Source of the DNA: an uncultured Victivallales bacterium
GTDB lineage: Bacteria; Verrucomicrobiota; Lentisphaeria; Oligosphaerales; JABHEG01
Assembly: GCA_964607765.1 (NCBI GenBank)
Contig: CAZSNT010000035.1
Location: 1,103 to 65,102 of the forward strand
Length of the DNA: 64,000 nt
Reading direction: 5' to 3'
Shown: positions 9,254-44,100 of the stretch, one piece after another
How positions within the stretch are numbered: position 1 is the first letter of the stretch
How the letters are laid out: every line of letters starts with the position of its first letter
Notes under the pieces: model-generated
What the model saw: the letters and a program-made list of their open reading frames with translations, nothing else
Database searches by the model: none
What the model was told of the DNA's origin: nothing
Program-made: the position numbers and the translations under genes

Positions 9254-9367
9254 CCCGAGGACTGCGCGCATGTCGCCTGGATATAGAAGAGCTGTACTTC
9301 GGGACTGTTCAGCGATTACGGACATCCCGGATCACGGGGTGACCCTCGACACGGAGAATCAATAGCC

Positions 9368-11674
9368 ATGGACAAACTGGAAACCAGGCTATACGCAAAG
9401 CACATCCGGCCGGATACGGGGACGCGCTCGGAGTGCGATCTGTATGCCAACACATATCCCGGGCCAAGTTGGCCTTTCGGCCTGGTTCAGCCCGGGCCGG
9501 ACAACATCACGGGTGAAATTTTCGGGTGTGGCTACTCGTGTGAGCTGCGATTCATTGAGGGTTTCTCAATGATCCGCATGAGCGGGACCGGCTGGTACGG
9601 GGAGTTTGGCAACTTCCTGGTCATGCCGACCACGGGCCCATTGAACACGTATCGCGGTTCCGGAAGAGAGCTCAAACAGGATCGTCAAGTTCCGCCGAGC
9701 TGGCACTCGGAGTTCTTCCATCCCGACGAGACCATCCTGCCCGGGTACTACGGTGTGTTGCTCCATCGCTACAATATCTACTCCGAAGTTACGGCAGCGC
9801 GGCATTGCGGGATGATGCGGTTCACCTTTCCGAAGGATGAGCTCAGCCGGATTCAGATCGACCTTTCCCGGCGTATTGGCGGCACCTCCACAGAACAGGA
9901 AGTGGCTGTAGTTGACAGCAATGCCATAGAAGGTTGGATGCGCTGCGGACCGGAAGGCGGCGGCATGGGGAACGGACATCCCAAGGATCTCAAGTATACG
10001 GTCTATTTCCGCGCCGAGTTCAGTAAGCCCCTGGTGGCATTTGGCACTTGGGAGATTGATTTCCCTGAAGCGCCGAGGCGGGATCGTCTGTTCATCGAGA
10101 GCAAGGAGTACGCGGAGCTCTGCCTTAACGCAGACGTGTTCCCAGGCAGAGCTGCGGCTCACGGGCAGCATGTGGGGTTCTACACTGAATTCCAGACAGA
10201 GAAGGATGAGCAGGTGCTGCTCAAGGTCGGCATTTCCTTCGTCGACATTGAGGGGGCCCGCGCCAACCTGCGGACAGAGATTCCTCACTGGGACTTTGAT
10301 CTTGTCCGACGACAGGTTGTTGAGGCATGGGACGAGGAGCTTTCCGGCCTGGAAATTGGAGGTGCTACGGAACATGATCGCTCGGTGGCGGCCACGGCAC
10401 TCTACCATTGCTGCCTGGACCCGCGCCGGATAGATGATTGCGACGGTCGCTTTGTCGATGGCAACGGCAATGTAAGGAAGGTCGCCGAGTTCTTGCCTCG
10501 GACAGTTTTCAGCGGCTGGGATGCTTTCAGAAGCTATGTCCCGCTGATGACGTTGCTGAATCCGGAGATGGTCAATGACCAGGTAAACACCCTTCTGGAT
10601 GTGGCTGAAACGACCAACAAGGGGCTTCCAAAGTGGGAGTTAATGGGTATTGACATCGAGTGCATGGTCGGTGACCCAGCTGTCGGGACTATTGTCGATG
10701 CCTACATGAAGGGAATCCGGGATTTCGACGTTGAGTTGGCGTACCAGCTCTGCCTGGAAACAGCCTTTGGTCCCCGGACCCATCGTGATGACTGGAAACG
10801 ATACGGCGAGCTCGGCTACTGCCCGAACCGTGTATCGACGACACTTGAGAACTGCTATTTCGACTGGTGCATCTGCCAGTTTGCCAGAGCGCTGTGCCGG
10901 AGGGGCGATGTTCAGGCTTTGCTGCCGCATCAGAAGAACTATCAGAATATATACTGCCCGGAAGTTGGCCTCATGCGGGCAAGAGATGAAGAGGGAAACT
11001 GGCTTCCTTGGAAAGGCCCCACGACATTCGGCCAGGGATGCATTGAGTCGAATCCACTGCAGCAGACGTTCTTTGTTCCCCATGACCCTGTCGGATTGAT
11101 GGAGCTCATGGGCAAAGACCGTTTCTTCAATACGCTGGAAGACATGTTTGCCAAGACCCCGGCAAGCTGCTTCTGGAATCCCTACTACAATCATTCCAAC
11201 GAACCCGTACATCAGTTGATCTACATCTTCTGCTGTACCGGGCGCCCATGGCTGGCTCAGAAATGGAGCCGGTCAGTTCTCAGACATGCTTACGGACTGG
11301 GCCCGGAAGGGCTCTGCGGCATGGATGACGTCGGTCAGCTCTCTGCCTGGTATCTGCTCAGCGCCATGGGAATACACCCCTTCTGTACCGCCAGCAACAT
11401 CTACTGCATAGGCAGCCCTCTGTTCAAGGAGACCGTCTTACAGCTGAATCCAAGATTCCATGAGGGCGATGCATTACGGATTCTCGCGCACAGCAATTCG
11501 GATGACAACATCTATGTACAGAGCGCAACCATCAATGGACGGGCTCTGAACCGGGCATGGGTCACCTATGACGAACTTACCTCAGGAAGTGAGATCGAGT
11601 TTCAGATGGGACCTGAGCCGAACGAAGAGTGGGGCAGCGCACCTGAGACTTGGCCGAGTGTTCTCATAAGATGA
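9368..11674 (+). CDS. GH92 family glycosidase (alpha-mannosidase-like)
   Basis: GH92 motifs are present: 'FSGWDAFRSYVPLMTLL', 'MVGDPAVGTIVDAYMKGIRDFD', 'TLENCYFDWC', 'FVPHDPVGLMELMG', 'NHSNEPVHQLIYIF' and 'GMDDVGQLSAWYLLSAMGIHPF'. No signal peptide. Confidence 0.88.
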   Translation: MDKLETRLYAKHIRPDTGTRSECDLYANTYPGPSWPFGLVQPGPDNITGEIFGCGYSCELRFIEGFSMIRMSGTGWYGEFGNFLVMPTTGPLNTYRGSGRELKQDRQVPPSWHSEFFHPDETILPGYYGVLLHRYNIYSEVTAARHCGMMRFTFPKDELSRIQIDLSRRIGGTSTEQEVAVVDSNAIEGWMRCGPEGGGMGNGHPKDLKYTVYFRAEFSKPLVAFGTWEIDFPEAPRRDRLFIESKEYAELCLNADVFPGRAAAHGQHVGFYTEFQTEKDEQVLLKVGISFVDIEGARANLRTEIPHWDFDLVRRQVVEAWDEELSGLEIGGATEHDRSVAATALYHCCLDPRRIDDCDGRFVDGNGNVRKVAEFLPRTVFSGWDAFRSYVPLMTLLNPEMVNDQVNTLLDVAETTNKGLPKWELMGIDIECMVGDPAVGTIVDAYMKGIRDFDVELAYQLCLETAFGPRTHRDDWKRYGELGYCPNRVSTTLENCYFDWCICQFARALCRRGDVQALLPHQKNYQNIYCPEVGLMRARDEEGNWLPWKGPTTFGQGCIESNPLQQTFFVPHDPVGLMELMGKDRFFNTLEDMFAKTPASCFWNPYYNHSNEPVHQLIYIFCCTGRPWLAQKWSRSVLRHAYGLGPEGLCGMDDVGQLSAWYLLSAMGIHPFCTASNIYCIGSPLFKETVLQLNPRFHEGDALRILAHSNSDDNIYVQSATINGRALNRAWVTYDELTSGSEIEFQMGPEPNEEWGSAPETWPSVLIR

Positions 11675-11720
11675 TCGGCCAACGAGGGCGAACAATGATC
11701 CATATAAGGACATATGACCA

Positions 11721-12794
11721 ATGGCTGATCCGGTATACCTTGCTTTCATGGGAAGAGGCGAAGATCGCGTTCTGCACTGGGAGAACTTCTCCAATCCGGA
11801 CGCGGCAACGCACATTTCTGGTATTGATTATTACCAGCAGCCCAGGACCTGTATCCTGAAGGTCAATGAGATGTATCCATTTCTGCGTCTTCGGGCGCCG
11901 GCCAAAGACACGCCGATCCCCCGGCCAGAGGAACAGGAGGATACAGGAAAGGGCCGCTGGGGGGCGCACTTCCGGGACCATTGGCAGCAGGGCGAAGCAG
12001 GAAAGCGGTTTTCATCCCACGAGGAAATGCTCAAGTTCAGCCCGCTGGAACAGGGCGACTTCACAGGCTGGCACATCATGGCGGATGGCGACTATTCCAG
12101 TGAGGAGATTATCTATGAGCGACTGCGGAAGGCATACCCGCCGGAGTGGGAGGACCAGGGCCCGAAAGGGACCTTCAATTGGACTGGCTTCTACAACACC
12201 ATGTTCATGTGGCCATTGGTGCTCTTCGGCTATGAGAACTTCATGTACCTCTGCCTGGAACCCGAGTTCGAGCGCATCATGGATGAATTTGCCGAACTGA
12301 GTCGACGCGTCTTCAAGGCCATTGCCCGATTGCCCGTGAACTTCGTCTGGTGTCATGACGACATTGTCCTGGCCAACGGACCGGTGGTCTCTCCACAGTG
12401 GATGCACAAATACATCTTCCCCAGATATGAGGAGTTCTGGGGCCTCCTAAGGGCGGCGGGCAAGGAGGTCGTCTTTGTGGCGGACGGCTGTATGGATGCG
12501 TTTGCAGATGACGTTATGGCTTGCGGTGCACGTGGCATGCATACGGAGCCCTTTACTGATTTCCGCGCCATTGCCCGCAAGCACAAGGACTGTGTCCTGG
12601 CGGGCGAAGGGGATTGCCGCATTCTGATGAGCAACGACAAGCCGGCCATCCGCAAGATGGTCGAGAAGATGGTCGAGACGTCAAAGATGAGCAGGGGCTA
12701 TCTGATGGGCATTGGCAACCACATCCCCTTCAATGTGCCCCCTGAGATGGTCAAATACTACTTTGATCTGTCCGCCGAGCTGGGTCACCGGTGA
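11721..12794 (+). CDS. URO-D (uroporphyrinogen decarboxylase / MtaA-like) fold protein, subfamily A
   Basis: The C-terminal half matches the URO-D TIM-barrel pattern: 'CHDDIVLANGPVVSPQWMHKYIFPRYEEFW', 'VVFVADGCMDAFADDVMACGARGMH' and 'GYLMGIGNHIPFNVPPEMV'. The reaction cannot be inferred. Confidence 0.6.
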   Translation: MADPVYLAFMGRGEDRVLHWENFSNPDAATHISGIDYYQQPRTCILKVNEMYPFLRLRAPAKDTPIPRPEEQEDTGKGRWGAHFRDHWQQGEAGKRFSSHEEMLKFSPLEQGDFTGWHIMADGDYSSEEIIYERLRKAYPPEWEDQGPKGTFNWTGFYNTMFMWPLVLFGYENFMYLCLEPEFERIMDEFAELSRRVFKAIARLPVNFVWCHDDIVLANGPVVSPQWMHKYIFPRYEEFWGLLRAAGKEVVFVADGCMDAFADDVMACGARGMHTEPFTDFRAIARKHKDCVLAGEGDCRILMSNDKPAIRKMVEKMVETSKMSRGYLMGIGNHIPFNVPPEMVKYYFDLSAELGHR

Positions 12795-12843
12795 CAGCGG
12801 AGACGGCCGTGAAGAGAGTAGCAAAAGAGCATGAGGCCATCAT

Positions 12844-14127
12844 ATGAGCGCAATACTTGATCCGGAAAGAGACATCGCGATTGTCCAGGGGTTGGCACGA
12901 GACGTGGCCGAGATCGCCGCACTGCCGGTACAGGAAGAAAAGCGTGGGCTCTGGCGGCGCCTGAATGGCCTGCAGCCGGTCCGTCCGATGGTTACGATCA
13001 ACCAGATTTGCTGGAACGAAATGGACATTGGCGATGAACTGACTTTGCAGTGCAAGGGAAGGGAATGCCGCGGCTACGAGAGACACTTGCGGCGGATCTT
13101 GTACATGTGGCGCCATTTCCCCGTCGACATGGTAGTGGAGCCTTTCATAGATGTGCCGATGGCGGTGACCAACACGAAGTTCGGGGTTGAGCGTAAGGAC
13201 ACCACCGCCGTCTTGGATCCTACCAGTGCCGTGGTGGGGCACCTCTTTGAAAACCAGTTTCAGACGGAAGCTGATCTCGACAAAATACGTGAGCCGCGGA
13301 TCAGTCATGACAGCGCGGAAACCGAACGGCGACTTGCAGTCGCGCATGAGCTCTTTGACGGCATTCTGGATGTCAGGCGCGTCGGGTACAATCCGTACAT
13401 CGGGTTCTGGGACCCCATCGCGACCTGGATGAGCGTTCAGGATGCGCTCTATGCACTCGTCGACCGCCCCGACTTCATTCATCGCATGCTGGCCCGCATG
13501 CTTGACGGCTATCTAAGCATGCTCGATCAGCTTGAGGAGCAGGGATTGCTCTGCGGTCCGCAAGACATGATCCATTGCACCGGGGCCTATACGGATGAGT
13601 TGCCCCTGTCGGATTACAACCCGGAGAAGCCGCGGACCAAAGACATCTGGGCTTTCGGTCTGGCGCAGATGCTGGGGTCCGTGTCGTCGGCGATGTACAA
13701 GGAGTTCGAGGTCGACTACGCATCTCGGATATGCGAACGATTCGGCTTGGTTTACTACGGTTGCTGTGAGCCGTTGGACATGAAGATGGACGTGGTGCGT
13801 GAACTCCCCAATGTGCGCAAGGTGTCCATGAGCCCATGGGTGGACCAGGCGCGCGGCGCGGCTGGGATCGGCAAGGACTACGTCTACTCGCGCAAACCGA
13901 ATCCGGCGTTGCTGGCTGCCACCCGATTCGATCCCGATGCTGTGCGTCGGGACCTTGCCGAGACAATGGAGTTGTCTGCCAAATACGGCTGCCCTGTGGA
14001 GTTCATCCTGAAAGACATCAGTACGGTCTGCTACGAGCCTCAACGCCTGGAGGAGTGGGCCAAGGTTGCCATGGCGATCGTGGAGCAGGAGCAACCGGCG
14101 GAACATACCAGTGAGGTCAACACATGA
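12844..14127 (+). CDS. Distant URO-D-like TIM-barrel protein, subfamily B (paralog of 29143..30396)
   Basis: It shares 'W.RL......RP', 'YYGCCEPLD.K.D.....PN.RK.S.SPW' and 'E..LKD..TV' with 29143..30396. The URO-D fold assignment is tentative. Confidence 0.45.
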   Translation: MSAILDPERDIAIVQGLARDVAEIAALPVQEEKRGLWRRLNGLQPVRPMVTINQICWNEMDIGDELTLQCKGRECRGYERHLRRILYMWRHFPVDMVVEPFIDVPMAVTNTKFGVERKDTTAVLDPTSAVVGHLFENQFQTEADLDKIREPRISHDSAETERRLAVAHELFDGILDVRRVGYNPYIGFWDPIATWMSVQDALYALVDRPDFIHRMLARMLDGYLSMLDQLEEQGLLCGPQDMIHCTGAYTDELPLSDYNPEKPRTKDIWAFGLAQMLGSVSSAMYKEFEVDYASRICERFGLVYYGCCEPLDMKMDVVRELPNVRKVSMSPWVDQARGAAGIGKDYVYSRKPNPALLAATRFDPDAVRRDLAETMELSAKYGCPVEFILKDISTVCYEPQRLEEWAKVAMAIVEQEQPAEHTSEVNT

Positions 14128-17100
14128 GTGGATGTCCCGATGCCCTGCCCAGGACTTCCGACAGAATCCTGAGCTTTGAGACGCCGGAGGAGATGGCTCA
14201 GGTTCGAGCCACTGGGTCGACCGTCCGGCAGAGCGATACACTCGCCCGGCTCGGAACCCACAGTCTCCAGTGGGACTGGCAAGCCGGGGCGACGATCACC
14301 ATGCCGCTGTTCCACCACTATGCGAAGAAGACGAGACTATCTACCTTCCCTCAAGTCCAGTGCCTGGTAATCTGGCTCTACAATGACCGGCCGAACGCCG
14401 GCCATTTTACGCTTGAACTGGGCTCGAACGGAGCGTTCCCGATCTCCTGCAGCTTCCATCTCAACTACACCGGCTGGCGCACGGGTCACATCCCGCTGTC
14501 CCAGATGGAAGGCGGCGCGCCGCAGGCGGGGGACTACACCGAGTATGAGCATCTACGCATCTGCGTGCCCGACGACCATCCGGAATGCAGCGGCCGTCTC
14601 TTCATTGACGACGTCTACACCACGATGCTCGATGCGCGGCATCCCTCGGCCGATTACCAGGCGCCCTATGTGCGCTGCTGCTTCAACGGGGCGCCGCACG
14701 TCACTCAGTGGCTCAATCAGGCAGCCCTGCCCAGCCGGGAGGACTTGCGCATCAAGCAGATCCCGATTTCCGACGGAGATCTGCAGGCCTCCCGTCGGTT
14801 GTACGAAGCCGAACTCCAGAACCAGGTCGGCAGATTCAGCGGGGACGGGCTGAGTCCGGCGGAATGCGGAGCTGCGCTGCGGCAGCTCGAGGAACTGGGG
14901 ATTCGGGAAGTCGAGTTCGAGGACAAGACCTATCTGCAGAGCCCTTGCATCGGCCTTCGTGGGGAAGGGCTGCCGCCAAGTGTTCTCGATGCGGAAACCC
15001 GGAAGGGGCGGTTCCTGCCCGTCCATGTTTTCCAGAAGACGCTTCATGCGCTGGCCTGCTCGTACCACACCAGTACGGACGATGCTCAGCGATCTGCCTT
15101 GCGCGATGCCTTTCTCCTGGCTACACGCGCCTACCTGCAGTCCGGCTGGGCAGCCGGCAGCAACATGGGCAGCATCCACCACCTCGGATACGCCACACGA
15201 ACAGTGGCCCCCAGCTTCTTGATGATGAAACAGGAGCTCGCCGATGCCGGGCTGCTCCAGGAGGTCTCGGACAGCCTGAACTGGTACGTGGTCGCGCACG
15301 TGGTGAATGACGAGACGCACACCGACCCGGACCTCGACCTGTTCAACACCGTTCTGCAATCGCACTGCCTCGTGTCCATGCTGCGCCTGACCGAGGAGGA
15401 TTGCGCCCGACACGCCATGCTCCTGTCGCAATGGCTGTCCCGCACCGTCGCTGACGGCAGCACATGGGGCGGATTCCGGCCTGACGGCACGGCCTGGCAC
15501 CATTGGGGGCATTACCCGGCGTACACCGGAGGGGCGATTGACAGCGCCGTGAAGGTCGCCAATGCTCTGACTGGCGCAGGCTTCCCGCTCACCCCCAAAG
15601 GCCATGCTGCGCTGCAGAAGGCCGTCAAGGCGATCCTGCTCTACAGCGAGGGGAACCGGTTTCCGCGCAGTCTCTGTGGCCGCCATCCCTTGCGAGGTTC
15701 GCACAAGCGCTTCATCGAGGCCCCCTACACGGCGGCTTTCGTCGACCTGGCCCCCGTGGACGAGGAACTGCAGCGTCTGCACGCCTACCACACGGCCGAC
15801 GGCTCCATCGCGGGTCACTGGACGCTCCCCTACTCCGACCTCAGTCTCCACCGGAGAGATGACTACCTGGCCGCCGTCCGGGGCTTCGACGTCAACTGCT
15901 GGGGAGCGGAGATCTACGGGGTCGTCAACCGCTTCGGGCGCTACCAGTCCTACGGCACACTGGACATCCTGTACAAAGGAGAGCCCGCGCTTCCCTACGA
16001 AGGCTACGACTGGAACCTGAATCCAGGCACCACCATCACCTACCTGCCGCTCGAAGAGCTGGAAGCGCCCATCCCCGTCTGGATGGTCACCGCCACCACG
16101 CGCTTTGCCAACGGAGTGCACGACCGCGACCACCGCAACGGTGCCCACGGCTTTGAGCTGGACGATGCGATGTTCACCAACAAGGATCCGGGCTACGAGG
16201 AGATATCCACGAGGGAGAAGCTCACGGCCCGCAAATCCACCTTCTTCATGGACGACCTGATTCTCTGCCTCGGCACGGGCATTTCCGGGCAGCACGACGC
16301 CGCGCCGGTGTATACCGTGCTCACTCAAAGAGGGATCGACCCACCGACCGGCACGGTGGTGGTAAACGGCGAAGACGCCTCCTTTCCTTACGAACAGCAA
16401 CTCACCGGCCCTGCCACGCTCTTTGATGGCAACCGCACGGGTTTCCTGGTCATGGGCAAAGACACCCGGGTTCTGGTGAGGAAGCAGGAGCAAGTCAGCC
16501 GCGGCGATGCCGTGACGTTCATACCAGGGCGCCAGGCAAAACCCCATCGCGACAAATCCCGTGCCCCCCGCTACCTGGCGGAGACCCGCGGCAACTTCCT
16601 GTCGGCCTGCATCGATCACGGCGTACAACCCCGCGACGCCCGTTACGAGTACGTGGTGTGCCCTGGCGTGGACCGGAGCTCTTTCCAGGCCAAGGCCACA
16701 CGGCTCCAGGCGAATCCCAGGCTGTTCTACCGAATCATCTCATGGAAGAACGCGCTGCACGCCGTGCACGACGTGCGGACCGGCACGGACACCTACGTAC
16801 TCTACGAAGCTCAGGACCTGATTCCCCACGCCGCCCTGCACGCGGTGTCTGAGCCCTGCCTGCTCATGTGCAAGGAAGACGAAGCTGGCGGCTACATGCT
16901 CAGCGTCGCCCTCCCGGACCTGCACGTCACCGCCTTCTCACGAGAGCACAAACACAAGTCATTCGAGAGCCGGCCTCACGAACTGAAGCTGATCTTCGGC
17001 GGGCTCTGGACGTTGCCGGCGGACGCTCCGGATGCTGTCTGCATCGAGCAGGCAGACGGACGGACCACGGTCACCATCCGCGCCCGGCACGGGCAGTCGT

Positions 17101-17225
17101 ACCATGTCCAGCTGAACTCGGACGTGGCCCCATCGGGAAGTGTCAGGAGTTCTATGAAAAGGAAGAATCAATTCACAGGCATCCCACGGAAAAGATCAGG
17201 GCGAAGGATTGGGGCGAAGGATTAA
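14124..17225 (+). CDS. Chondroitinase-ABC-like polysaccharide lyase (PL8-type), paralog P1, no signal peptide
   Basis: Colinear with Proteus chondroitinase ABC I as I recall it. Matching segments are 'HSLQWDWQAG', 'VIWLYNDRP', 'LNYTGWR', 'GSNMGSIHHLGYATR', 'RPDGTAWHHWGHYPAY', 'CGRHPL', 'NRFGRYQSYG', 'YEGYDWNLNPGTT', 'ARKSTFFMDDLILCLGTGIS' and 'IDHGVQPRDARYEYVV'. The start overlaps the previous stop (ATGA). Confidence 0.8.
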   Translation: MSGCPDALPRTSDRILSFETPEEMAQVRATGSTVRQSDTLARLGTHSLQWDWQAGATITMPLFHHYAKKTRLSTFPQVQCLVIWLYNDRPNAGHFTLELGSNGAFPISCSFHLNYTGWRTGHIPLSQMEGGAPQAGDYTEYEHLRICVPDDHPECSGRLFIDDVYTTMLDARHPSADYQAPYVRCCFNGAPHVTQWLNQAALPSREDLRIKQIPISDGDLQASRRLYEAELQNQVGRFSGDGLSPAECGAALRQLEELGIREVEFEDKTYLQSPCIGLRGEGLPPSVLDAETRKGRFLPVHVFQKTLHALACSYHTSTDDAQRSALRDAFLLATRAYLQSGWAAGSNMGSIHHLGYATRTVAPSFLMMKQELADAGLLQEVSDSLNWYVVAHVVNDETHTDPDLDLFNTVLQSHCLVSMLRLTEEDCARHAMLLSQWLSRTVADGSTWGGFRPDGTAWHHWGHYPAYTGGAIDSAVKVANALTGAGFPLTPKGHAALQKAVKAILLYSEGNRFPRSLCGRHPLRGSHKRFIEAPYTAAFVDLAPVDEELQRLHAYHTADGSIAGHWTLPYSDLSLHRRDDYLAAVRGFDVNCWGAEIYGVVNRFGRYQSYGTLDILYKGEPALPYEGYDWNLNPGTTITYLPLEELEAPIPVWMVTATTRFANGVHDRDHRNGAHGFELDDAMFTNKDPGYEEISTREKLTARKSTFFMDDLILCLGTGISGQHDAAPVYTVLTQRGIDPPTGTVVVNGEDASFPYEQQLTGPATLFDGNRTGFLVMGKDTRVLVRKQEQVSRGDAVTFIPGRQAKPHRDKSRAPRYLAETRGNFLSACIDHGVQPRDARYEYVVCPGVDRSSFQAKATRLQANPRLFYRIISWKNALHAVHDVRTGTDTYVLYEAQDLIPHAALHAVSEPCLLMCKEDEAGGYMLSVALPDLHVTAFSREHKHKSFESRPHELKLIFGGLWTLPADAPDAVCIEQADGRTTVTIRARHGQSYHVQLNSDVAPSGSVRSSMKRKNQFTGIPRKRSGRRIGAKD

Positions 17226-25043: not shown

Positions 25044-26839
25044 CGACCCACACCACACCCGCCGACAGACTCGCCTGGTGGCGCGAGGCCCGTTTCGGCA
25101 TGTTCATCCACTGGGGACTGTATGCGATCCCCGCCGGCGAATGGAAGGGCAAACGCATCAAGGGCCTCGGGGTATGGCTCCAGAAACAGGCGCGCATTCC
25201 CCATCCTGAGTACGCAGAGCTCGCAGGGCAGTTCAACCCCGTGGACTTCGACGCCGACTTCATCGCCAAACTCGCACACGACGCAGGCATGCGCTATCTG
25301 GTCTTCACTGCCAAGCACCATGACGGCTTTGCCATGTACCACTCCCGCGTCGATCCCTTCAACATCACGGAGGCGTCCCCGTTCGGTCGCGACCCGACCG
25401 CCGAACTGGCCGCGGCCTGCCATCGACACGGGCTCACCTTTTGCCTGTACTACTCGCAGGATCTCGACTGGGCGCATCCCGACGGCGGCGGCAACGACTG
25501 GGACTACGCCCCGGAATCCAAGTCCTTCGAGACCTACTTCAGGGACAAGTGCCTCCCGCAGGTCGAGGAGCTTCTCACCCGCTACGGTCCCATCGGCTTG
25601 ATGTGGTTCGACATGGCAACCAACATCACCCGCGAACAGAGCATCCGCCTGAGAGACCTGGTCCACCAACTCCAGCCCGATTGTCTGGTCAGCGGTCGCG
25701 TCGGTCACGGTGTGGGCGACTACGGCTCGTTGGGCGACAACCAGTTGCCGTTGGGCACGCCCGAGGGCGACTGGGAAACCCCCGCCACCCTCAACGACTC
25801 CTGGGGCTTCAAGCACTACGACCACAACTGGCGCGCGCCCGACGCGATCGTCGGCGCCATTGTGGACACTGCCGAGAAGGGCGTCAACTACCTGCTCAAC
25901 ATCGGCCCCGACGACGCCGGCGCCGTACCGCCGCCCAGCGTGGACATCCTTCGTCGCACGGCGGACTGGATGATCGTCCACGGCGAAGCGATTCACGGCA
26001 CTGCCGCGAATCCCTGGAACTGCGAGTTCTCCTGGGGGCGCGTGACCGTCAAGGGCACGAGACTGTACCTGTTCTTCCGCGACTGGCCGGGCTCCGCGTT
26101 CGAGCTCCGGGGGCTGACCACCGAGGTCGCGAGCGCGGCTGTGTTGGGCGGCACTGCAATCGGCTGTCAGCAAAGAATGGTGGGCGACACGCCCGTCCTC
26201 AGCCTGACGTTGCCTGGCACAGCCCCTGCGAAGCCCATATCGGTCGTCAGGCTGACGTGCGCCGGCCCGCCCGCGGTCATCGCCGGTTGCTGCCAGCAGA
26301 GCGACGGAACGCTGACCTTGCCGCCGCAACTTGCCACGCCCCACCTGCACAGTGCGCCGATCTCGCGCGAGGCCGTCGGCCTGGGCGGCGCGCTCGCCGC
26401 CGCGGAAGCAGCCGAAGCACAGAACGAAGTCAGGGCCGGTCCGCGCATGGGCGTCGGGCCATCCGGGGTCGTCGAGAACTGGTACAGCGAGGACGACTAC
26501 CTCACCTGGACCTGCCACATCCTCCAGCCCGGAACCCACGAGGTGTCCTTGCAGACCATGGCGCGCAAGTACCAGCCGTGGGAAGGCGGTCACGACGTGG
26601 TGGTGGAACTGGCAGGGCAACGCATTGCCGCCAGCGTCCAGGACCACGCTCGCTTGCACACCTTGCGCAATCAGCACTTCGAGGAAGCGCTCTCGCGTCT
26701 GGGCACGCTGACGATCGACGCGGTCGGGACCTACGAGCTCACCCTGCGCGCCTCCCACATCAACCCGACCATCGACCACGGCCTCTGCGTCTCACGCCTG
26801 GCTCTGTGGTCCCTGGCGCCGACATCGGAGAGACCATGA
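25040..26839 (+). CDS. Alpha-L-fucosidase, GH29
   Basis: Motifs 'WWREARFGMFIHWGLYAIPAG', 'YLVFTAKHHDGFAMYHS' and 'YGPIGLMWFDM'. It is a paralog of 2584..4401. No signal peptide. ATGA overlaps at both ends. Confidence 0.9.
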   Translation: MTTHTTPADRLAWWREARFGMFIHWGLYAIPAGEWKGKRIKGLGVWLQKQARIPHPEYAELAGQFNPVDFDADFIAKLAHDAGMRYLVFTAKHHDGFAMYHSRVDPFNITEASPFGRDPTAELAAACHRHGLTFCLYYSQDLDWAHPDGGGNDWDYAPESKSFETYFRDKCLPQVEELLTRYGPIGLMWFDMATNITREQSIRLRDLVHQLQPDCLVSGRVGHGVGDYGSLGDNQLPLGTPEGDWETPATLNDSWGFKHYDHNWRAPDAIVGAIVDTAEKGVNYLLNIGPDDAGAVPPPSVDILRRTADWMIVHGEAIHGTAANPWNCEFSWGRVTVKGTRLYLFFRDWPGSAFELRGLTTEVASAAVLGGTAIGCQQRMVGDTPVLSLTLPGTAPAKPISVVRLTCAGPPAVIAGCCQQSDGTLTLPPQLATPHLHSAPISREAVGLGGALAAAEAAEAQNEVRAGPRMGVGPSGVVENWYSEDDYLTWTCHILQPGTHEVSLQTMARKYQPWEGGHDVVVELAGQRIAASVQDHARLHTLRNQHFEEALSRLGTLTIDAVGTYELTLRASHINPTIDHGLCVSRLALWSLAPTSERP

Positions 26840-29097
26840 ACGAGGAACGACTGGAAGCGCCATCAGGCCAACTGTGCTTCGAGGCTCCGCCGCAGGAGTT
26901 TCCGAGCACCGTGTCCACCGACGCGCCGTTGCTGGGCAACGGCTCCCTGCTGGCGACGATAGGCGGCCCTCCAGAGGATCTGCAGCTCATTCTGGGCCGC
27001 AACGACTTCTGGCGCCTGGAACAGCGCCATGAACGCTGCATTCCGGTCCCGGTCGGTTGCTTCCGCATCCAATCCGAGGCGCTCAAGGGCGCCAGCTACC
27101 GCGTCCGGCAGGATCTCCGCACGGCCACGACCCGCGGCGCCTACAAGCTGCCGGGAGGAGCGGGGCTGGCCCTGGAAGCGTTCGTGGCCGCCACGGAGGA
27201 TGTTCTGGTCCTGCGACTGACGCCCGCGCAGGACGCTCTCGCAGTCAGCCTGTCTCTGACCATCGAATCCAACCTTTACACGCGCACGAACCCGGGCAGT
27301 GACGGTTGGGAATTGCGTGAGGAATACAAGAGCCATCCGCCGGTCCCCTACCAATCGGACAACAGCATGGAATGGGCGGACCCGGTCTTCCTCGGGACCC
27401 GCGCGTTCAACGAGCATGTCGGGCAACCCACGGCGGCCAGCCTGGCATGGCGGATCTTCGGTGGCCGCGACCACGCGCCCCTGCACGTCCGGAAAGACGA
27501 GAAGCGGCACGTTCGGATGGGGCAGCGACTATCCGTCCCCGCCGGCGAAACGGTCACCGTTGTACTGGCCTCGAGCAGCCTGTTCAAGTCGCCCGACTAT
27601 CGGCAGCACGCCAAGTCCCTGGTGCAGGACATGGCGTCCGCCGACGACCTGCAGGAGCTGGAACGTGCCCATCGGGAGTGGTGGGAGGCGTTCTGGGAGC
27701 GCGGCTCGACCATTGCCGTGGACGATCCGGCGCTGGAGAAGAGCTACTACCGGGCCCAATACACCATGGCGAGCGCCTCGCGGGACCCGTCCTTCCCGCC
27801 TGGCCTTTTCGGCTGGACCACGCATGACTCCCCCAAGTGGATGGGGGACTACCACATGAACTACAACCACATGGCGCCCTTCTACGGCCTTTACACGACC
27901 AACTGCCTCGACCAGGCTCGGACACACTATGCGCCCATCCTCGATTTCGTGGAGCGCGGGCGCGAGTATGCGAGGTCCATTCTCGACACGGGCGGCGTGT
28001 TCTATCCGGTCGGCATCGGCCCGCTCGGCTACACCACGGGGTACAAGCCATTCCTGCAGTGGTATGTCGAGCACGGCCTGGAGGGTGAGGACATCTTCCT
28101 GATGCAGCGCTCGAACGCTGCCTACGGGCTGGTGAACATGGCGACCGACTGGCACTACACCCGCGACCTTGCGCAGGCCGAGAGGATCTATCCGTACGCC
28201 CGTGAGGTCGTGCGCTTCTGGGAAGACTACCTCGCCTGGGAGGACAACGCGCAGGGCGGTCGCTATGTCGTCCGGAACGACGCCGTTCACGAAGGCTCCG
28301 GCACGGACACGAATTCGATCCTGAGCTTGGGCCTGGTCCGGAACAGCCTGGAACTGCTCCTCGACATGAGCGAGGCGCTCGGGAAGGACGAGGGTCAGCG
28401 TGCGCGGTGGCAGGAGATTCTCGAGACGCTCTCCCCATTCCCCACCCAGGAACGAGAGGGGAAACAGGTCTTCCGTTATACCGAGGACGGGATGGCCTGG
28501 GCCGACAGCAACACGCTGGGCATCCAGCACATCTTCCCAGGCGGGCAAGTGCATCTGGACAGCCCCGCCGGGCTTCTCCAGGTGGCGCGCAACACGATCG
28601 AGGCGATGGGACGTTGGGTGGACTTCAACGGCTCGAACAGCTTCTTCATGGCCGCGATCCGCTCCGGCTACGATCCGGAGATCATCTGGAAGCAGCTGCA
28701 CGTCTTCCATGATGCCTGCCGCGAGAACGGGTTCCTCAAAGACAATCCCCACGGCATCGAGGCATGCAGCGTCGTGCCCAATGCGGTAAACGAGATGCTC
28801 TGCATGAGCCATCGAGGCGTGATCCGGCCCTTCGCCATGTGGCCCCGGAGCTGCGCGAACGCCCGCTTCACCAACATCCGCGCCTGGGGCGCCTTCCTGG
28901 TGTCGAGCGCGCTGCGCGACGGCGAGGCGCAGTACGTGAAAATCCACAGTGAGCGTGGCAGCGACTGCACCGTGGTCAACCCCTGGCCGGGGAAACGCGT
29001 GCTCCTCACCAGCGAAGAGCGCAGCGAGATCCTGAGCGGCGCCCGCTTTACGTTCAAGACGAAGAGTGGCGAAACACTGGAGCTCAGAAAAACATGA
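26836..29097 (+). CDS. GH95-like six-hairpin glycosidase (possible alpha-L-fucosidase)
   Basis: 'PLLGNGSLLATIGG...LILGRNDFW' resembles the GH95 N-terminal domain, and 'WMGDYHMNYNHMAPFYGLYTTN' resembles the GH95 'NxNxQMNYW' region. The start is set at the ATGA overlap. The 1,218-aa ORF in the track runs upstream through an out-of-frame part of the GH29 gene. Confidence 0.55.
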   Translation: MNEERLEAPSGQLCFEAPPQEFPSTVSTDAPLLGNGSLLATIGGPPEDLQLILGRNDFWRLEQRHERCIPVPVGCFRIQSEALKGASYRVRQDLRTATTRGAYKLPGGAGLALEAFVAATEDVLVLRLTPAQDALAVSLSLTIESNLYTRTNPGSDGWELREEYKSHPPVPYQSDNSMEWADPVFLGTRAFNEHVGQPTAASLAWRIFGGRDHAPLHVRKDEKRHVRMGQRLSVPAGETVTVVLASSSLFKSPDYRQHAKSLVQDMASADDLQELERAHREWWEAFWERGSTIAVDDPALEKSYYRAQYTMASASRDPSFPPGLFGWTTHDSPKWMGDYHMNYNHMAPFYGLYTTNCLDQARTHYAPILDFVERGREYARSILDTGGVFYPVGIGPLGYTTGYKPFLQWYVEHGLEGEDIFLMQRSNAAYGLVNMATDWHYTRDLAQAERIYPYAREVVRFWEDYLAWEDNAQGGRYVVRNDAVHEGSGTDTNSILSLGLVRNSLELLLDMSEALGKDEGQRARWQEILETLSPFPTQEREGKQVFRYTEDGMAWADSNTLGIQHIFPGGQVHLDSPAGLLQVARNTIEAMGRWVDFNGSNSFFMAAIRSGYDPEIIWKQLHVFHDACRENGFLKDNPHGIEACSVVPNAVNEMLCMSHRGVIRPFAMWPRSCANARFTNIRAWGAFLVSSALRDGEAQYVKIHSERGSDCTVVNPWPGKRVLLTSEERSEILSGARFTFKTKSGETLELRKT

Positions 29098-29142: not shown

Positions 29143-30396
29143 GTGGAGAGACTAATGACAATGGCGACCGACGCACAGATCCTCCGAGACCTGGCCCAGC
29201 GCTACATGGACGCGGCGGCGAGTCAGGACAGCGAGAAGACCAAGGACCAGTGGCGCAGGCTGCACGATCGCGACATGGAACGGCCCATGGTCTGGATCTG
29301 GGTCATCCTGTTCACCGAGGAGCTCGAGGAGATCACCAGGCTCCAATGCACGCACCCGCTTTTTCGGGCGAAAGAGAAGGAGCTCCGTACCGAGCTGTAC
29401 CACCACTACATCGGCGACGACTACCTGCTCGAACCGTACCTGCCGTTGCGCGCGTCCTACGCAAGCATGGAGAACGGCGCATGGGGAGTCGCCTTCCCGC
29501 CGCCGGAGACGAAGGGACGCCGTCCGGTTGACGGGGTCGCCGCCGACGTCTATCGCGACTCGCCGTTGAAGTCCCTCGACGACCTGAGCGTAATCCGGCC
29601 CGTTGAACACCGTATCGACGAGGCCAGGACAGCCGAGAACCTGAAGCTCCTGGAGGATGCAGTCGGCGACGTCCTGCCCGTCCACGTGTCGCGCCCCCCC
29701 GTCTACTTCCGCGAGTCCTTTGCCCCGACCGTCACCCGCATGCGCGGCATGACCCAACTCATGATGGACATGATCGAGGACCCCGAAGGCTTGCACCGTC
29801 TTCTCGGCCTCATGCAGAAGACGGTGCTCACCGCCCACGAACAGGCCGAAGAACGGGGTGGGATCTGTTCTGCAGACCAGTACATACAGTCCTGTCCCTA
29901 CAGCAACTACACCGTTGACCCCACGCCCGTCGCACCCGCCCGACACCGGGACCTGTGGTGTTTTAAGGCGGCCCAGGAGTTCACCGGCATATCGCCGCAG
30001 ATGCACAAGGAATTCGCCCTTGACTACCAGAAGCCGATCATGGAGATGTTCGCGGCGAGCGCCTACGGGTGCTGCGAGGACTTGACCCACAAAATAGACA
30101 TGCTGCGCGAGGTGAAAAACCTCAAGCGCATCTCGGTGACCCCCGCGGCGGACCTGGAGGAGTGCGCGGAACAGATCGGCAGTGACTACATCATATCCTG
30201 GCGCCCCAATCCTACCGACCACGTGTGCGCCACCTTCGATCGCAACCGTGTGCGTCGGCTCATTGCGGAGGGCCGGGACGTGCTGGAGAAGTACGGTTGC
30301 CAGTATGAGATCAACCTCAAGGACGTGCTCACCGTCCAGGGCGACCGTGAGCGTCTGCGCGAGTGGGTCGAGATCGTCCGCAGCGTGATCGAGTGA
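29143..30396 (+). CDS. Distant URO-D-like TIM-barrel protein, subfamily B (paralog of 12844..14127)
   Basis: Colinear with 12844..14127: 'DQWRRLHDRDMERPMVWI', 'AYGCCEDLTHKIDMLREVKNLKRISVTPA' and 'YEINLKDVLTV'. The start is uncertain (GTG 29143, ATG 29155 or ATG 29161). Confidence 0.45.
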   Translation: MERLMTMATDAQILRDLAQRYMDAAASQDSEKTKDQWRRLHDRDMERPMVWIWVILFTEELEEITRLQCTHPLFRAKEKELRTELYHHYIGDDYLLEPYLPLRASYASMENGAWGVAFPPPETKGRRPVDGVAADVYRDSPLKSLDDLSVIRPVEHRIDEARTAENLKLLEDAVGDVLPVHVSRPPVYFRESFAPTVTRMRGMTQLMMDMIEDPEGLHRLLGLMQKTVLTAHEQAEERGGICSADQYIQSCPYSNYTVDPTPVAPARHRDLWCFKAAQEFTGISPQMHKEFALDYQKPIMEMFAASAYGCCEDLTHKIDMLREVKNLKRISVTPAADLEECAEQIGSDYIISWRPNPTDHVCATFDRNRVRRLIAEGRDVLEKYGCQYEINLKDVLTVQGDRERLREWVEIVRSVIE

Positions 30397-40800: not shown

Positions 40801-41083
40801 GCAACTGCAGATTCCCTTATGGGTGAGAGCCATGGTCCTCGCTGACAAGGCGCTGTTCATTGCGGGGCACCCCGACGAGCGCGACAAGGCCGACCCGTAT
40901 GCCGCCCTGGACGGCGCGAAAGGGGGCATGCTGTGGGCGGTCGCCGCAAAGGACGGAAGCACTATGTCGAAATATGCGCTGGATGCGCCTCCGGTCTTCG
41001 ACGGAGTCGCGGCCGCGGGTGGAAGACTCCATCTGTCCCTGACAGACGGCTCGCTGACGTGCATGGAAGGCGACAGGAAATGA
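37856..41083 (+). CDS. Secreted SAM-methyltransferase-like + PQQ/BamB-like beta-propeller protein (paralog 2 of 3)
   Basis: Signal peptide 'MSRATHGFLGLWLLVAAGQAAEG'. Class-I methyltransferase motif I 'LVVHVGCGDG', followed by 'HGLDAD' and '[20 protein letters not shown]'. Invariant '[11 protein letters not shown]' and 'CQFGILPCNGLLYAPTHPCACY'. Propeller repeats are present. GTG 37817 is an alternative start. Confidence 0.75.
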   Translation: MSRATHGFLGLWLLVAAGQAAEGVPHASGGADILAKAGFAGGLVVHVGCGDGRLTAELRSDTGSLTHGLDADPANVAKARQHIHSTGQHGRIVVSHFDGRSLPYCDNLVNLVVADELGAVPMAEVTRVLAPLGVAYVGGKKTVKPWPKEIDEWTHFLYDASGNAVGHDSVVGAPHHVQWEAGPKWARTHDHLASISALVSANGRLFYIIDEGSIASAALPPKWKLVARDAFNGIVLWKRAIAPWEGHLRAFRSGPSEIPRRLVAKGDRVYVTLGYGKPVTALDAATGETLRTYDDTDGTHEILCEDGVLYLAAGEIPAPQWRKARKRRGAVPTPREKRILAIEADTGLQLWSKSDEDTRELFPLSLAVGGDRVLFHSPSHLICLDKRSGKESWRTPRPVNMRRPGYSTPTLVVCDDVVLVAERNIPPEQTNTSETVRWDVTYRAAMKTGLGRLIAYSAATGKELWSCPSCEAYTSPTDLFVADGLVWVSNVPDRKTADFREGRDLRTGEVKRRLDTTEAFTANHHHRCYRNKATDRYVFLGRSGTSTIDLQGGEHLRHSWVRGGCQFGILPCNGLLYAPTHPCACYIQSKLSGFFALAPKRTADSARWEQDGEALEQGPAYGSLDGREVSASQDWPTYRGDNARSGVTKTAVPTNLSRSWTAKPGGRLTAPVVADGRAYVASVDRHVLHALNADSGDVLWTFAAGGRIDSPPSVANGMVVFGSRDGTVHCLRADDGRLIWRFRAGPARRLVVSYGQVESAWPVHGSVLLHEGTVYFGAGRSSYLDGGMAVYRLDLATGRQLSKTHLYDRDPVTGAQFKDRTKDDYDMPGGLLDILSCDGSSVYMGEMRFDLRGNTQEPTVPHLFSSAGFLDDTWWHRTYWQYGIHMLSGPYEWSMVGNTLPAGRIMSVDDSTIFGFGRDKYAAGGHVGLGSSALRASYDRNKGGRYTLFAVAKEPYVTAEPFQKARKTFSRKRPNEKTDYLWQLQIPLWVRAMVLADKALFIAGHPDERDKADPYAALDGAKGGMLWAVAAKDGSTMSKYALDAPPVFDGVAAAGGRLHLSLTDGSLTCMEGDRK

Positions 41084-41109
41084 AACCCCGAGCACATAGG
41101 AGTCCGGTC

Positions 41110-44100
41110 ATGAGAAGAAGCCTGAGTGTTCTGTGTACGATTTTCCCTTTGGCGTGGGCGACTGTCCTCCGCGCAGATCCGGGTGACGAAGTACTCACAA
41201 AGACTGGGACGACCGGCGGTCTGATCGTACACGTCGGGTGCGGTGACGGCCAGTTGACCGCCAAACTGCGCACCGCGCAGGGGGCGTTGGTGCACGGGCT
41301 CGACACCAACTGGTCGAACATCGCCAAGGCGCGCCAGCACATTCATTCGACCGGGCAGTATGGACGGGTTGCCGTCAGTCATTTCGACGGCCGATCGCTG
41401 CCGTATTGCGACAACTTGGTGAACCTGATTGTGGCCGATGAGCTCGGCGCAGTTCCCATGGCCGAGGTGACGCGCGTGCTGGCTCCGTTGGGTGTCGCCT
41501 ATGTCGGCGGCAAGAAGACGGTCAAGCCGTGGCCGAAGGAGATCGACGAGTGGACGCACTTCCTGCACGGGCCTGACAACAACGCCGTGGCGCGCGACAC
41601 GCGTGCCGGGGCTCCACGGCACATGCAGTGGTTGGCGGACCCGATGTGGAGCCGCAACCATCACAAGCTGGCCAGCATCAGTTCGGTGGTTTCGTCGGGC
41701 GGGCGTCTCTTCTACATTGTCGACGACTCAACCGGGGCAAGTATGAAGGTCCCGGGGCAGTGGTCGGTCACGGCCCGGGACGCGTTCAATGGCGTGCGCC
41801 TCTGGAAACGTTCGCTCCCCGACTGGGCCTGGACGGGACACAAGTTCCGTTCCGGCCCCGTGCAGCTGCCCAGAACCCTCGTTGCCGAAGGAGGGCGCGT
41901 CTATCTGCCGCTCCGCGGCGGCGCCCCTGTTTCGGTGCTGGACGCGGTGACGGGCGACGTGGTGCGGACGTATGACGCGACCAAGGGCGCCGAAGAGATC
42001 GTGCTGTACAACGACGTCCTGTACGTGGTGACCGGCTCGCCGACAGCGGAGCAGGCTCTGATCGGGCCGAAGAGAGGCGCGAAAATCCCCGCGAAGACTG
42101 TCGTAGCCGTTGACGCGGCGAGCGGGGATGTCCTTTGGCGGTGGTCGGATGGGGAGCGGGGCGCCCTCCTGCCCATGACCCTCGCCGTGTCAGGCGGGTC
42201 GGTCTTCCTGGCCACGGGCCAGGGCGTGGCCGCCTTGGCTGCTGACTCCGGGGCAGAACGCTGGTTTGCCGATGCAGCCTACCTGGAGGGAGCCGGCAAC
42301 CCGAAGAGAATCACCCACGACGCCCGCTACGAACGGATGCCCGAATGGATGTCGCCCCAGCCCGGCAGCGTGGGAAGCGCGCGCGGCCTCGGCTGGTCGT
42401 TGGCGACGCTGGTGGTGCGTGACGAGGTCGTCCTGTGGGCCGGCACCCACCGACTGAGAGCCCTGGCGGCAAAGGACGGCAAGAGATTGTGGGAGGCGCT
42501 CTGTCGCCCGGGTTACTGCAAGTCCCCCGTCGACGTGCTGGCGGTGGACGGCACAGTCTGGGTCGGCCCGGACTTCAACAAGGGGCGCGATCTCCGCACG
42601 GGCGAGGTCACACGCGAGAACGCAGTGTTCGAGGATCTCTGGACAGCCGGGCACCATCACCGCTGCTACCGGAACAAGGCCACCTCGCGTTACATCATGA
42701 CCGGTCACCGCGGCGTTGAGTTGATGGCGTTGCAGGGAGAGGACCACGGGCGCAACAACTGGACGCGCGGGATCTGCCAGTATGGCATCATGCCCTGCAA
42801 TGGGCTGCTCTACGTCCCCACGCACATCTGCGCCTGCTACATCGAGGCGCAGCTGAACGGCTTCTGGGCCTTCGCTTCCGAGCTGGCGTCCCCCATTCCT
42901 CCGCCCGCCGCACCCGCCCTCGACAAGGGCCCCGCCTATGCATCTCCAATTCGGCAATCGGCAATCGACATTCGGCAATCGGCGGACTGGCCGACCCATC
43001 GCGGGAACGCAGCGCGGACGGCGTGTACCGACACTGCCGTACCGCCCGGCCTGTCCCAGGCGTGGCGCACCGAGTTGACCGGGCCGCTCAGCGGCGTGAC
43101 GGTCGCCGGCCGTCGCGTGTTCGTCGCCACGGTCGACTCGCATCAGGTTCGCGCCCTCGACGCCCAGTCCGGCGAGACGCAGTGGCGTTTCACAGCGGGG
43201 GGACGTATTGACTCCCCGCCCACGATTCACGGCGGTCGGGCGTACTTCGGGTCGAATGACGGTTGGGTTTACTGCCTGCGCGCGTCGGACGGCGCGTTGG
43301 CATGGCGCTATCGCGTTGCGCCCGCGGCCCGCTATACCGTGGCCCGGGACGGCGTTGAGTCCCTCTGGCCTGTGCACGGGAGCGTCCTGATCCAGAACGA
43401 CACGGTCTATGCCGTGGCGGGACGATCGTCCTACCTGGACGGGGGACTTCGCTTCGTCGGCCTGGACCCCGAGACGGGGGCGGTCCGTCACGAGACAGTG
43501 TTCGCCAGCAAGCACCCGGACTACGCGAGCATGATGGCGGCCAAGGAAACCGCGTCGAAAGAGCACCCGCTCACGCACACCACTGCGCAGTTCGCAACCG
43601 ACTGGAAGACGTTCACCGATCCGGACAAGAGTGATTCGTTCACAATGGAAGGCGCGATCGACGACATCCTCGTGGGCGACAGCTCCCAAGTCTACATGAA
43701 GCACCTGTGTTTCGACGACGCTCTCGTCCGCCAGGAGCGAGTCGGGCGCCACCTGTTCTCAACCACCCGTCTCTTGGACGACGCCGAGCACCATCGTACG
43801 TTCATGATGCTCGGCACAGCGAACATCAAGCGCGCCCACGTCTCCTACTCGTGGATCGCCAACCGGCGGCATGGCGCGAGAGGGTACTTCTTCGACGTGC
43901 CCTACGGATTGCTCCTGGCCTGTGACGAGACCACGGCCTACGGGATCTGGAGCGGCTACCAGGTCTTTGCCGAGACGATTCGCCCGCAGCCGCAGGATGG
44001 TCCCACGCGGAGCGACATTCAGACAACCCCCGAGCGAAAAGGCAAGGCAAAGCCGGAGTTGCACACCATGCGCTGGCAGACGAAGCTGGCCTTCCGCCCG

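Follow-up and report, generated by a model that had tools for sequence, protein, structure and literature searches.

UroD-fold proteins in a glycan-degradation locus of an uncultured Victivallales bacterium as possible modules of corrinoid-dependent sugar demethylation

The 64-kb stretch of contig CAZSNT010000035.1 (assembly GCA_964607765.1, uncultured Victivallales bacterium), referred to below as the window, encodes within a glycan-degradation locus five proteins with the fold of uroporphyrinogen decarboxylase (UroD), for which the short names A1, A2, A3, B1 and B2 are used. As judged from sequence comparisons and structure models, all five belong to the UroD superfamily, have corrinoid methyltransferases and HemE as their nearest matches by sequence or fold, and are neither HemE nor MtaA proper. 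Their relatives recur in the surroundings of sugar-metabolism genes, and two related gene clusters encode a corrinoid protein, accompanied in one of them by an activase. We tentatively read the five proteins as substrate-specific modules of a corrinoid-dependent methyl-transfer system, which would probably O-demethylate imported sugars and whose carrier and activase would be encoded elsewhere; this is the explanation to which we lean, with considerable reserve.

Fold and family of the five proteins

All five open reading frames (ORFs) predicted in the first-pass annotation of the window were recovered on the plus strand (Table 1). The annotated B2 product (P0121) has 413 residues, which fits an in-frame ATG at 29155 and not the GTG at 29143; the ATG is probably the actual start. 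None of the five proteins has a signal peptide, unlike many of the lyases, sulfatases and propeller proteins of the same locus, and therefore they act in the cytoplasm on imported material. The first-pass annotation also held that all five were translationally linked to carbohydrate-active enzymes (CAZymes). This is true of B1, the gene of which overlaps that of a polysaccharide lyase family 8 (PL8) protein by 4 nt, but the 4-nt overlap of A2 and A3 involves no CAZyme, and the other junctions are gaps of 45–303 nt.

The uroporphyrinogen decarboxylase pattern ascribed to A1, A2 and A3 was reproduced with the Pfam model PF01208 (gathering threshold 23.9 bits), which scored 52.4 bits for A1 (E 5.6e-14, C-terminal half only), 51.7 bits for A2 (E 9e-14) and 106.4 bits for A3 (E 2e-30). 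Their treatment as a single subfamily had to be abandoned: being mutually about 22–24% identical over partial alignments, the three proteins represent three lineages, with separate orthologue sets for at least A1 and A2. The best sequence match of A3 in the PDB was MtaA (4ay7, E 8e-11); no significant match was obtained there with A1 or A2, and A1 had no match in NCBIfam. The AlphaFold2 model of A1 (predicted local distance difference test, pLDDT, 88.3) was closest in fold to the same MtaA structure (E 1.5e-9), then to HemE and then to MetE. At the position of the His-x-Cys of the MtaA zinc site A1 has ‘VADGC’ (ADGC); A2 keeps His-x-Cys in ‘QHSCG’ (HSC only) and has lost the second Cys, and A3 has ‘LHTDG’ (His-x-Asp, HTD) with a Cys shifted by one position from the second zinc Cys of MtaA. 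In the A1 family, HDD, DG(C) and NH motifs are conserved together with many invariant Trp, Asp and Glu residues. Homologues of A1 number 1818, and among those listed the identity is 65–71%, their metagenome-assembled genomes (MAGs) being labelled Kiritimatiellae, Lentisphaerae, Planctomycetes and Latescibacteria. For A1, B1 and B2 the best named relatives belong to MAGs with the labels Kiritimatiellae, Lentisphaerae or Lentisphaeria, which points to the Planctomycetes–Verrucomicrobia–Chlamydiae (PVC) group as the origin of the window.

B1 is paralogous to B2 (31% identity, E 4e-54), and the ‘GCCE(P/D)L’ motif by which they were first grouped was found again, as YGCCE(P/D)L, at residue 306 of B1 and residue 309 of B2. 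As modelled, PF01208 includes neither of them, since B1 had no Pfam match and B2 only a sub-threshold one of 16 bits; NCBIfam gave no match for either, and sequence searches of the PDB with B1 alone and with a B-family profile returned only noise. An hhalign comparison between 19 aligned B sequences and eight URO-D proteins yielded 89.9% probability (E 1.7e-6, 212 columns) and placed the B ‘YYGCCE’ (GCC) on the zinc motif ‘LHxCG’ of the MtaA group. The AlphaFold2 model of B1, built from a 30-sequence alignment (pLDDT 86.8, predicted template-modelling score, pTM, 0.87), retrieved HemE and MtaA structures as all of its top 23 Foldseek matches in the PDB (E 2e-7 to 6e-4, TM 0.4–0.58). Besides, PF01208 is carried by a few relatives of B2 (1293 homologues), one of which is named ‘uroporphyrinogen decarboxylase/cobalamine-independent methionine synthase family’. 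These three lines of evidence agree with the earlier description of B1 and B2 as distant relatives within the UroD fold.

By these sequence and model comparisons, B1 and B2 are a large uncharacterised and separate branch of the fold. Its Cys-Cys pair (C307 and C308 in B1, within Tyr-Gly-Cys-Cys) is invariant. More than 6400 homologues of B1, about 65–73% identical, are spread across phyla; a B1 plus B2 profile collected 813 clusters (50% identity level) at E ≤ 1e-30 and 3451 at E ≤ 1e-3. The orthologues of B1 in species-representative genomes (56–70% identity) are all annotated as ‘hypothetical’ and lack a Pfam family; the labels of their MAGs include Planctomycetota, Lentisphaerae, Latescibacterota, Anaerolineae/Chloroflexota, Verrucomicrobia, Armatimonadota, Hydrogenedentota, Spirochaetes and Eubacteriales. 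No domain fusion was found in the best 150 B-family representatives, all of which are single-domain proteins of about 230–450 residues, mostly 405–450. The identity of about 65–70% retained by A1 and B1 orthologues between very distant phyla is unusually high for accessory genes of sugar loci, and points to strong constraint, to frequent horizontal transfer, or to the two combined.

Membership of three characterised families was not borne out. The hemE equivalog model TIGR01464 (cut-off 302.95 bits) scored 26.6 bits for A3 and did not match the other four proteins; no tetrapyrrole genes lie nearby, the neighbours being CAZymes, sulfatases and propeller proteins. With the MtaA/CmuA models TIGR01463 and NF004889 (cut-offs 235 and 244 bits) A3 reached 96.7 and 97.4 bits and A2 20.6 and 32.2 bits, and A1, B1 and B2 gave no match. 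As to MetE, none of the five proteins matched Pfam Meth_synt_1 or Meth_synt_2 at E ≤ 0.01, and MetE structures were only distant fold matches to A1.

Sugar-gene surroundings and corrinoid partners in related loci

The association with CAZymes is not confined to this contig and recurs for relatives of A1, A2, A3 and B2, and profile searches placed none of the five proteins in a characterised sugar-active family. The recurrence was observed in bacteria of the PVC group, in Chloroflexota and in a gut Firmicute, often beside mannosidase genes (L0xx labels below denote related loci retrieved for comparison, and GH stands for glycoside hydrolase family). All four examined contexts of A1, the window included, are sugar-related: the orthologue in L065 lies in the order AraC, URO-D, URO-D, GH38, A1, GH116-like, GH42, that in L067/68 in the order URO-D, A1, PIG-L, GFO, KduI, and that in L082 in the order GH2, A1, GH51-like, GDSL. 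A metagenome scan with A2 returned 6 loci only; in two of them (L071, L073) the orthologue directly follows a GH38 gene, in L070 it follows genes of a DeoR-type sugar regulator, a solute-binding protein (SBP) and two permeases, and in L074 it stands among DUF6259, GFO, ThuA and two further URO-D genes. In a cultured Chloroflexota strain from a cold seep, an A3-like gene is surrounded by genes for GFO, a sugar isomerase, ROK and a sugar ABC transporter. Four of the five other contexts of B2 relatives are CAZyme loci, namely L059 (GH2 and propeller proteins), L060 (GH63-like, DUF4838, DUF6259, GH42 and GH4), L062 (GH42-like proteins) and L080 (sulfatase, GH39-like and GH123), L064 being unrelated. 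Mannosidase families recur as neighbours of A1 (GH92 in the window, GH38 in L065) and of A2 (GH38 in L071 and L073), and L003 shows a mannose theme as well, having GH2 proteins with mannosidase-type domains and a mannose/lyxose isomerase. UroD-like genes in L067, L074, L080 and L083 were often accompanied by Gfo/Idh/MocA oxidoreductases and xylose-isomerase-like ‘sugar phosphate isomerase/epimerase’ genes, that is, by neighbours (ThuA too in L074) typical of keto-sugar, i.e. oxidative and non-hydrolytic, pathways.

The absence of a B12-binding protein from the window, as stated in the first-pass annotation, was upheld by a six-frame phmmer search with a corrinoid protein, which gave nothing at E ≤ 10. 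The corrinoid motif DxHxxG..SxL..GG does not occur in the six frames of the window either, no homologues of RACo or DUF2284 were found in it, and Rfam models detected no cobalamin riboswitch and no other family in the window or in three related loci.

Two related clusters do contain such parts. The first, L003, is a 245-kb metagenome contig, on which a canonical corrinoid protein is encoded inside an array of UroD-like genes. The genes, all co-directional, follow in the order ABC permease, URO-D, URO-D (an A2 orthologue, 56% identity), corrinoid protein, three URO-D, B1 orthologue (67%), D-lyxose/mannose isomerase, PfkB kinase, two GH2 and SIS. The corrinoid protein, encoded directly downstream of the A2 orthologue, comprises 212 residues with a B12-binding domain and the motifs GDLHDIGKN, SALLTTT and MIGGAP.

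The second cluster belongs to a cultured gut Firmicute, Subdoligranulum variabile TSDC17.2-1.1 (L075). It opens with a Cys/Met-metabolism pyridoxal phosphate (PLP) enzyme and contains GH88, GH2, URO-D, URO-D, ROK, URO-D, GH78, a weak URO-D, M20, a B-family gene (43% identity to B1) and a PocR/AraC regulator, with convergent genes of a RACo activase (RACo_C_ter 1e-59), DUF2284 and URO-D (8.5e-53). When 72,556 plasmid records were searched with the corrinoid protein of L003, the best match was a 763-bp contig of the same S. variabile assembly (L079, OY725869.1; 57% identity). The terminal 127 nt of this contig recur unchanged at the end of the cluster contig and at the beginning of another one (L078), which opens with a URO-D gene. 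Hence, as inferred from assembly-graph overlaps and not from contiguous sequence, the corrinoid gene immediately precedes a URO-D gene at both sites, and it is probably present at least twice. One of the URO-D proteins encoded downstream of it bears a C-terminal thioredoxin-like domain. The 763-bp ‘plasmid’ record itself is an assembly-graph node holding a complete corrinoid protein, and many ‘plasmid’ records of this assembly look like ordinary contigs.

Two weaker links to corrinoids were noticed: a corrinoid adenosyltransferase of the CobA/CobO/BtuR type is encoded directly downstream of a B2-family gene, between GH42-like genes (L062 11272-11796, L063 5685-6209), and a DUF2284 gene lies about 1.4 kb from an A2 relative. 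A corrinoid protein occurs in two of the five loci that have at least three UroD-superfamily genes (window, L003, S. variabile, L065 and L074), and in no locus with one or two of them. The restriction of the corrinoid protein to multi-UroD loci fits a carrier and an activase encoded once and shared, with paralogues spread to the loci that need them.

Proposed mechanism and competing explanations

Methyl ethers on sugars block glycosidases and downstream catabolism, and O-methylated fucose, mannose, galactose and glucuronate occur in algal, plant and invertebrate glycans. According to the reading we favour, the five proteins would belong to the corrinoid-methyltransferase branch of the superfamily (the MtaA or O-demethylase methyltransferase I, MT I, type) and not to the heme-pathway decarboxylases. 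Secreted lyases, sulfatases and glycosidases would cut a sulfated glycan containing fucose, mannose and uronate, and its fragments would be imported, possibly with the participation of the ABC permease encoded at the start of the window. Each UroD-like paralogue would then bind one kind of methylated sugar or oligosaccharide and hand over the O-methyl group to Co(I) in a small corrinoid protein; methyl ethers on sugars are suggested as the donors by the sugar-gene context. The methyl-Co(III) might be unloaded by another member of the family or by a folate methyltransferase, and an activase of the RACo type would keep the corrinoid reduced, carrier and activase being shared and encoded elsewhere in the genome. 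The demethylated sugar would finally become accessible to the intracellular enzymes encoded nearby (GH92, GH95, GH29 and lyases). For B1 and B2, the alignment of the invariant Cys-Cys with the zinc-binding His-x-Cys of MtaA makes a function as metal-dependent methyl- or alkyl-transferases in the same system the most likely one. Among the activities considered in the first-pass annotation, O-demethylation gains indirect support from the corrinoid proteins of L003 and S. variabile (the latter with RACo), but not from the window itself, which lacks the corrinoid parts; decarboxylation of a uronate-derived product found no supporting context or chemistry and was set aside, and the assertion that the role of the five proteins is central to the pathway is not established by the evidence. 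With less assurance than for the window, we consider that dispersed corrinoid-dependent sugar demethylation, the Pfam-less B family included, may be a feature of anaerobic glycan degraders of several phyla (PVC bacteria, Chloroflexota, gut Firmicutes and others).

A number of facts weigh against this proposal. Corrinoid protein, activase, folate methyltransferase and B12 riboswitch are all missing from the window; among approximately 75 related loci (flanks up to 10 kb) a corrinoid protein was found in L003 and the S. variabile cluster only, and the relatives of A1, A2, A3 and B2 commonly reside in sugar loci devoid of it. All five proteins score far below the NCBIfam cut-offs for MtaA/CmuA, and the complete MtaA zinc site His-x-Cys...Cys is present in none of them, alternative metal sites being possible. 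The orthologues of B1 mostly stand alone in about 50 genomes, with 156 Pfam families among 121 neighbouring ORFs and GH20, found in three loci, as the commonest neighbour. Furthermore, we know of no methylated sugar in the glycan targeted by the locus, and the S. variabile cluster, having GH78 and GH2, could serve methoxylated plant phenolic glycosides instead of methyl sugars. In the same census of B1 neighbours no conserved partner appeared, and the ideas of a conserved A1–B1 pair or of an operon of B1 with a corrinoid protein were dropped.

The strongest competitor, less probable in our view but a serious one, is that the five are corrinoid-independent sugar enzymes, the UroD/MetE-like TIM barrel having been recruited for a new carbohydrate reaction in which each paralogue acts alone on the product of a neighbouring glycosidase. 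Metal-assisted cleavage of an ether or ester, direct methyl transfer to a thiol, isomerisation and elimination are possible reactions of this kind. Such enzymes would agree with the location of most relatives in sugar loci or by sugar transporters with no corrinoid gene within 10 kb, with the lack of conservation of the MtaA zinc-site residues over the paralogues, with the invariant positions of the A1 family, which are rich in Trp, Asp, Glu and His as sugar-binding sites are, and with the frequent Gfo/Idh/MocA and xylose-isomerase-like TIM-barrel neighbours of keto-sugar pathways. However, two independent multi-paralogue clusters include a corrinoid protein, in one case together with an activase, and scattered partner-less methyltransferase paralogues are equally expected from a shared-carrier system. 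To our knowledge, moreover, no member of the UroD superfamily acts on a sugar.

It is improbable that the proteins are corrinoid methyltransferases for non-carbohydrate donors (methoxylated aromatics released from glycosides, methyl-sulfur or methyl-selenium compounds), with the glycan genes merely co-located or co-regulated. A GH78 rhamnosidase and a GH2 protein are encoded in the S. variabile cluster, and enzymes of these families can also remove the sugars from methoxylated flavonoid rutinosides. Still, the window and the relatives in PVC bacteria and Chloroflexota have sulfatases, fucosidases and mannosidases around them, as well as sugar isomerases, kinases and ABC transporters for sugars, and in such surroundings one would not expect the substrate to be an aromatic or sulfur compound. 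Clusters with multiple MtaA-like proteins, a corrinoid protein and the activase RACE, and no folate methyltransferase, have been tentatively tied to methyl-sulfur or selenide metabolism (PMC10418091), but these are mostly from Firmicutes, and ‘sugar’ does not occur as a word in that paper.

Slightly less probable again is a housekeeping alkyl- or methyl-transferase function of B1, and perhaps of A1, for instance a methionine-synthase-like reaction with homocysteine, for which placement in the locus would be incidental. The orthologues of B1 are indeed well conserved over many phyla and mostly solitary among unrelated genes, the fold is common to MetE (as seen for A1), and the S. variabile cluster includes the PLP enzyme of Cys/Met metabolism mentioned above. 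But B1 lacks a Meth_synt match, Foldseek ranked HemE and MtaA first with no MetE among the 50 listed matches of B1, its gene overlaps the lyase gene, and its relatives lie within UroD/CAZyme arrays in L003 and S. variabile; for A1 the uniformly sugar-related contexts speak against it. Finally, the chance that any of the five is a genuine HemE of heme or corrinoid biosynthesis is practically nil, for the likeness consists in the fold, the Pfam family name and the rank of HemE structures as the closest folds to B1, against the failure of the equivalog model (A3 26.6 bits vs 303), five divergent copies in a CAZyme context free of tetrapyrrole genes, and N-terminal motifs of the MtaA type.

Regarding known systems, the window proteins resemble MtaA/MtbA/CmuA (PDB 4ay7) in PF01208, common to A1–A3, in the best PDB matches of A3 (sequence) and A1 (fold), in the barrel of B1, in the His-x-Cys position kept in A2 and in the alignment of the B Cys-Cys there. 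They differ in scoring below the family cut-offs, in the incomplete zinc triad, in the absence of a corrinoid protein from the window, and in the non-methanogen host and glycan-breakdown context. Possession of many MT I paralogues is typical of anaerobic O-demethylase systems and may be likened to the dispersed UroD-like paralogues described here. Among the members of the UroD superfamily are corrinoid methyltransferases with O-, S- or halogen-demethylating activity, e.g., OdmB and VdmB, which need a corrinoid protein and a RACE activase (PMC10418091). With the O-demethylase systems of anaerobes, in which an MT I such as OdmB/VdmB works together with a corrinoid protein, an MT II and RACE, the present proteins share membership in the superfamily and the multiplicity of substrate-specific paralogues; a corrinoid protein is found in both related clusters, and RACo in S. 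variabile but not in L003. The substrates of those O-demethylases are phenyl methyl ethers, whereas here the context indicates sugars, i.e. alkyl methyl ethers with a harder leaving group; moreover, MT II was not seen, the paralogues are dispersed over CAZyme operons, and the window has neither corrinoid protein nor RACE. The type 1 mlp clusters described by Kountz and Balskus (PMC10418091) also combine several MtaA-like proteins, a corrinoid protein and RACE with no folate methyltransferase in non-methanogenic anaerobes, but they are compact, mainly from Firmicutes and proposed for methyl-sulfur or selenide compounds, with no CAZyme link reported and no B-family protein described; the window, again, lacks the corrinoid protein and Ram/RACE that accompany the Mlp2 and Mlp3 orthologues in such a cluster.

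In the literature searched no paper was found on an association of URO-D, MtaA or corrinoid proteins with glycan loci or methylated sugars, and the only enzyme for carbohydrate demethylation retrieved was the cytochrome P450 of marine Bacteroidetes, which O-demethylates 6-O-methyl-galactose by O2-dependent oxidation to formaldehyde (PMC6292453). Like the role proposed here, it removes a methyl ether that blocks catabolism and does so in a polysaccharide-degradation context, but its fold and chemistry are unrelated, the proposed system being one of O2-free methyl transfer. If our reading is correct, it would account for the handling of methylated sugars in anaerobic sediments and guts, provide an oxygen-independent counterpart of the P450 sugar demethylases and a new auxiliary activity for polysaccharide-utilisation loci, tie glycan turnover in anoxic habitats to the availability of B12 and to metabolism of the one-carbon or methanol type, and give a function to several very large ‘hypothetical’ families. 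The idea is directly testable in S. variabile, a cultured organism with the complete module.

Gene content of the window

The window has a G+C content of about 63%, all credible genes are on the plus strand, and intergenic gaps are short or replaced by 4-nt overlaps. Its CAZyme set consists of three GH29, one GH95 and two GH92 proteins, six three-domain PL8-type lyases and one PL6-like protein; six S1 sulfatases, three large propeller proteins of the pyrroloquinoline quinone (PQQ) type and the ABC permease at the window start are encoded as well. Judging by the combination of GH29, GH95 and GH92 with sulfatases and PL8-type lyases, the target of this very large locus is a sulfated glycan with fucose, mannose and uronate in it; a plausible candidate would be a microalgal sulfated fucose-containing glucuronomannan with methylated sugars. 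Scanning of the region 9000-17700 for promoters and terminators gave nothing beyond shuffled expectation, so that co-transcription is neither supported nor contradicted.

Table 1. Positions in the window of the UroD-fold genes and of genes adjoining them
Feature	Position	Strand	Length (aa)	Remarks
A1	11721..12794	+	357	UroD superfamily; no signal peptide
B1	12844..14127	+	427	Pfam-less family, UroD fold; no signal peptide
B2	29143..30396	+	417	B1 paralogue; between GH95 and PL8-type lyase
A2	44463..45566	+	367	UroD superfamily
A3	45563..46606	+	347	Most MtaA-like of the five
GH92 alpha-mannosidase-family gene	9368..11674	+		46 nt upstream of A1; no signal peptide
PL8-type lyase, chondroitinase-ABC-like, three-domain	14124..17225	+		Overlaps B1 stop; no signal peptide
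GH95-family gene	26836..29097	+		Upstream of B2
SAM-methyltransferase-domain and PQQ-like beta-propeller protein	41080..44376	+		Secreted; 86 nt upstream of A2

The PL8-type lyase that overlaps B1 and two S1 sulfatases (20560-22041 and 49101-50558) lack the signal peptides which their paralogues in the locus possess, as would be expected if depolymerisation and desulfation had a second stage in the cytoplasm.

The propeller protein encoded upstream of A2 is the second member of a tandem secreted pair (the first at 37817-41083), each of about 1090 residues and composed of an N-terminal class-I S-adenosylmethionine (SAM) methyltransferase domain and a PQQ/BamB-like beta-propeller; the third propeller protein (4477-7587) has no methyltransferase domain. 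A close homologue is encoded beside a B2 relative that belongs to the same sample (L059), with weaker ones near B1 orthologues (L023, L032). A SAM-methyltransferase domain adjoining putative demethylase genes makes a curious pairing.

A Pfam-less 620-residue protein of L003 has no relative in the window, the 632-residue product of the ORF 50679-52577 included. The 600-residue ORF at 3-1805 has its ABC permease domain at residues 420–584 only, with a weak GH42-like stretch at 327–364, and may represent two genes, a fusion or a wrongly assigned start. Three further ORFs of the window are Pfam-less (1827-2579, 50679-52577 and 63113-63691), the first two having N-termini that resemble signal peptides.

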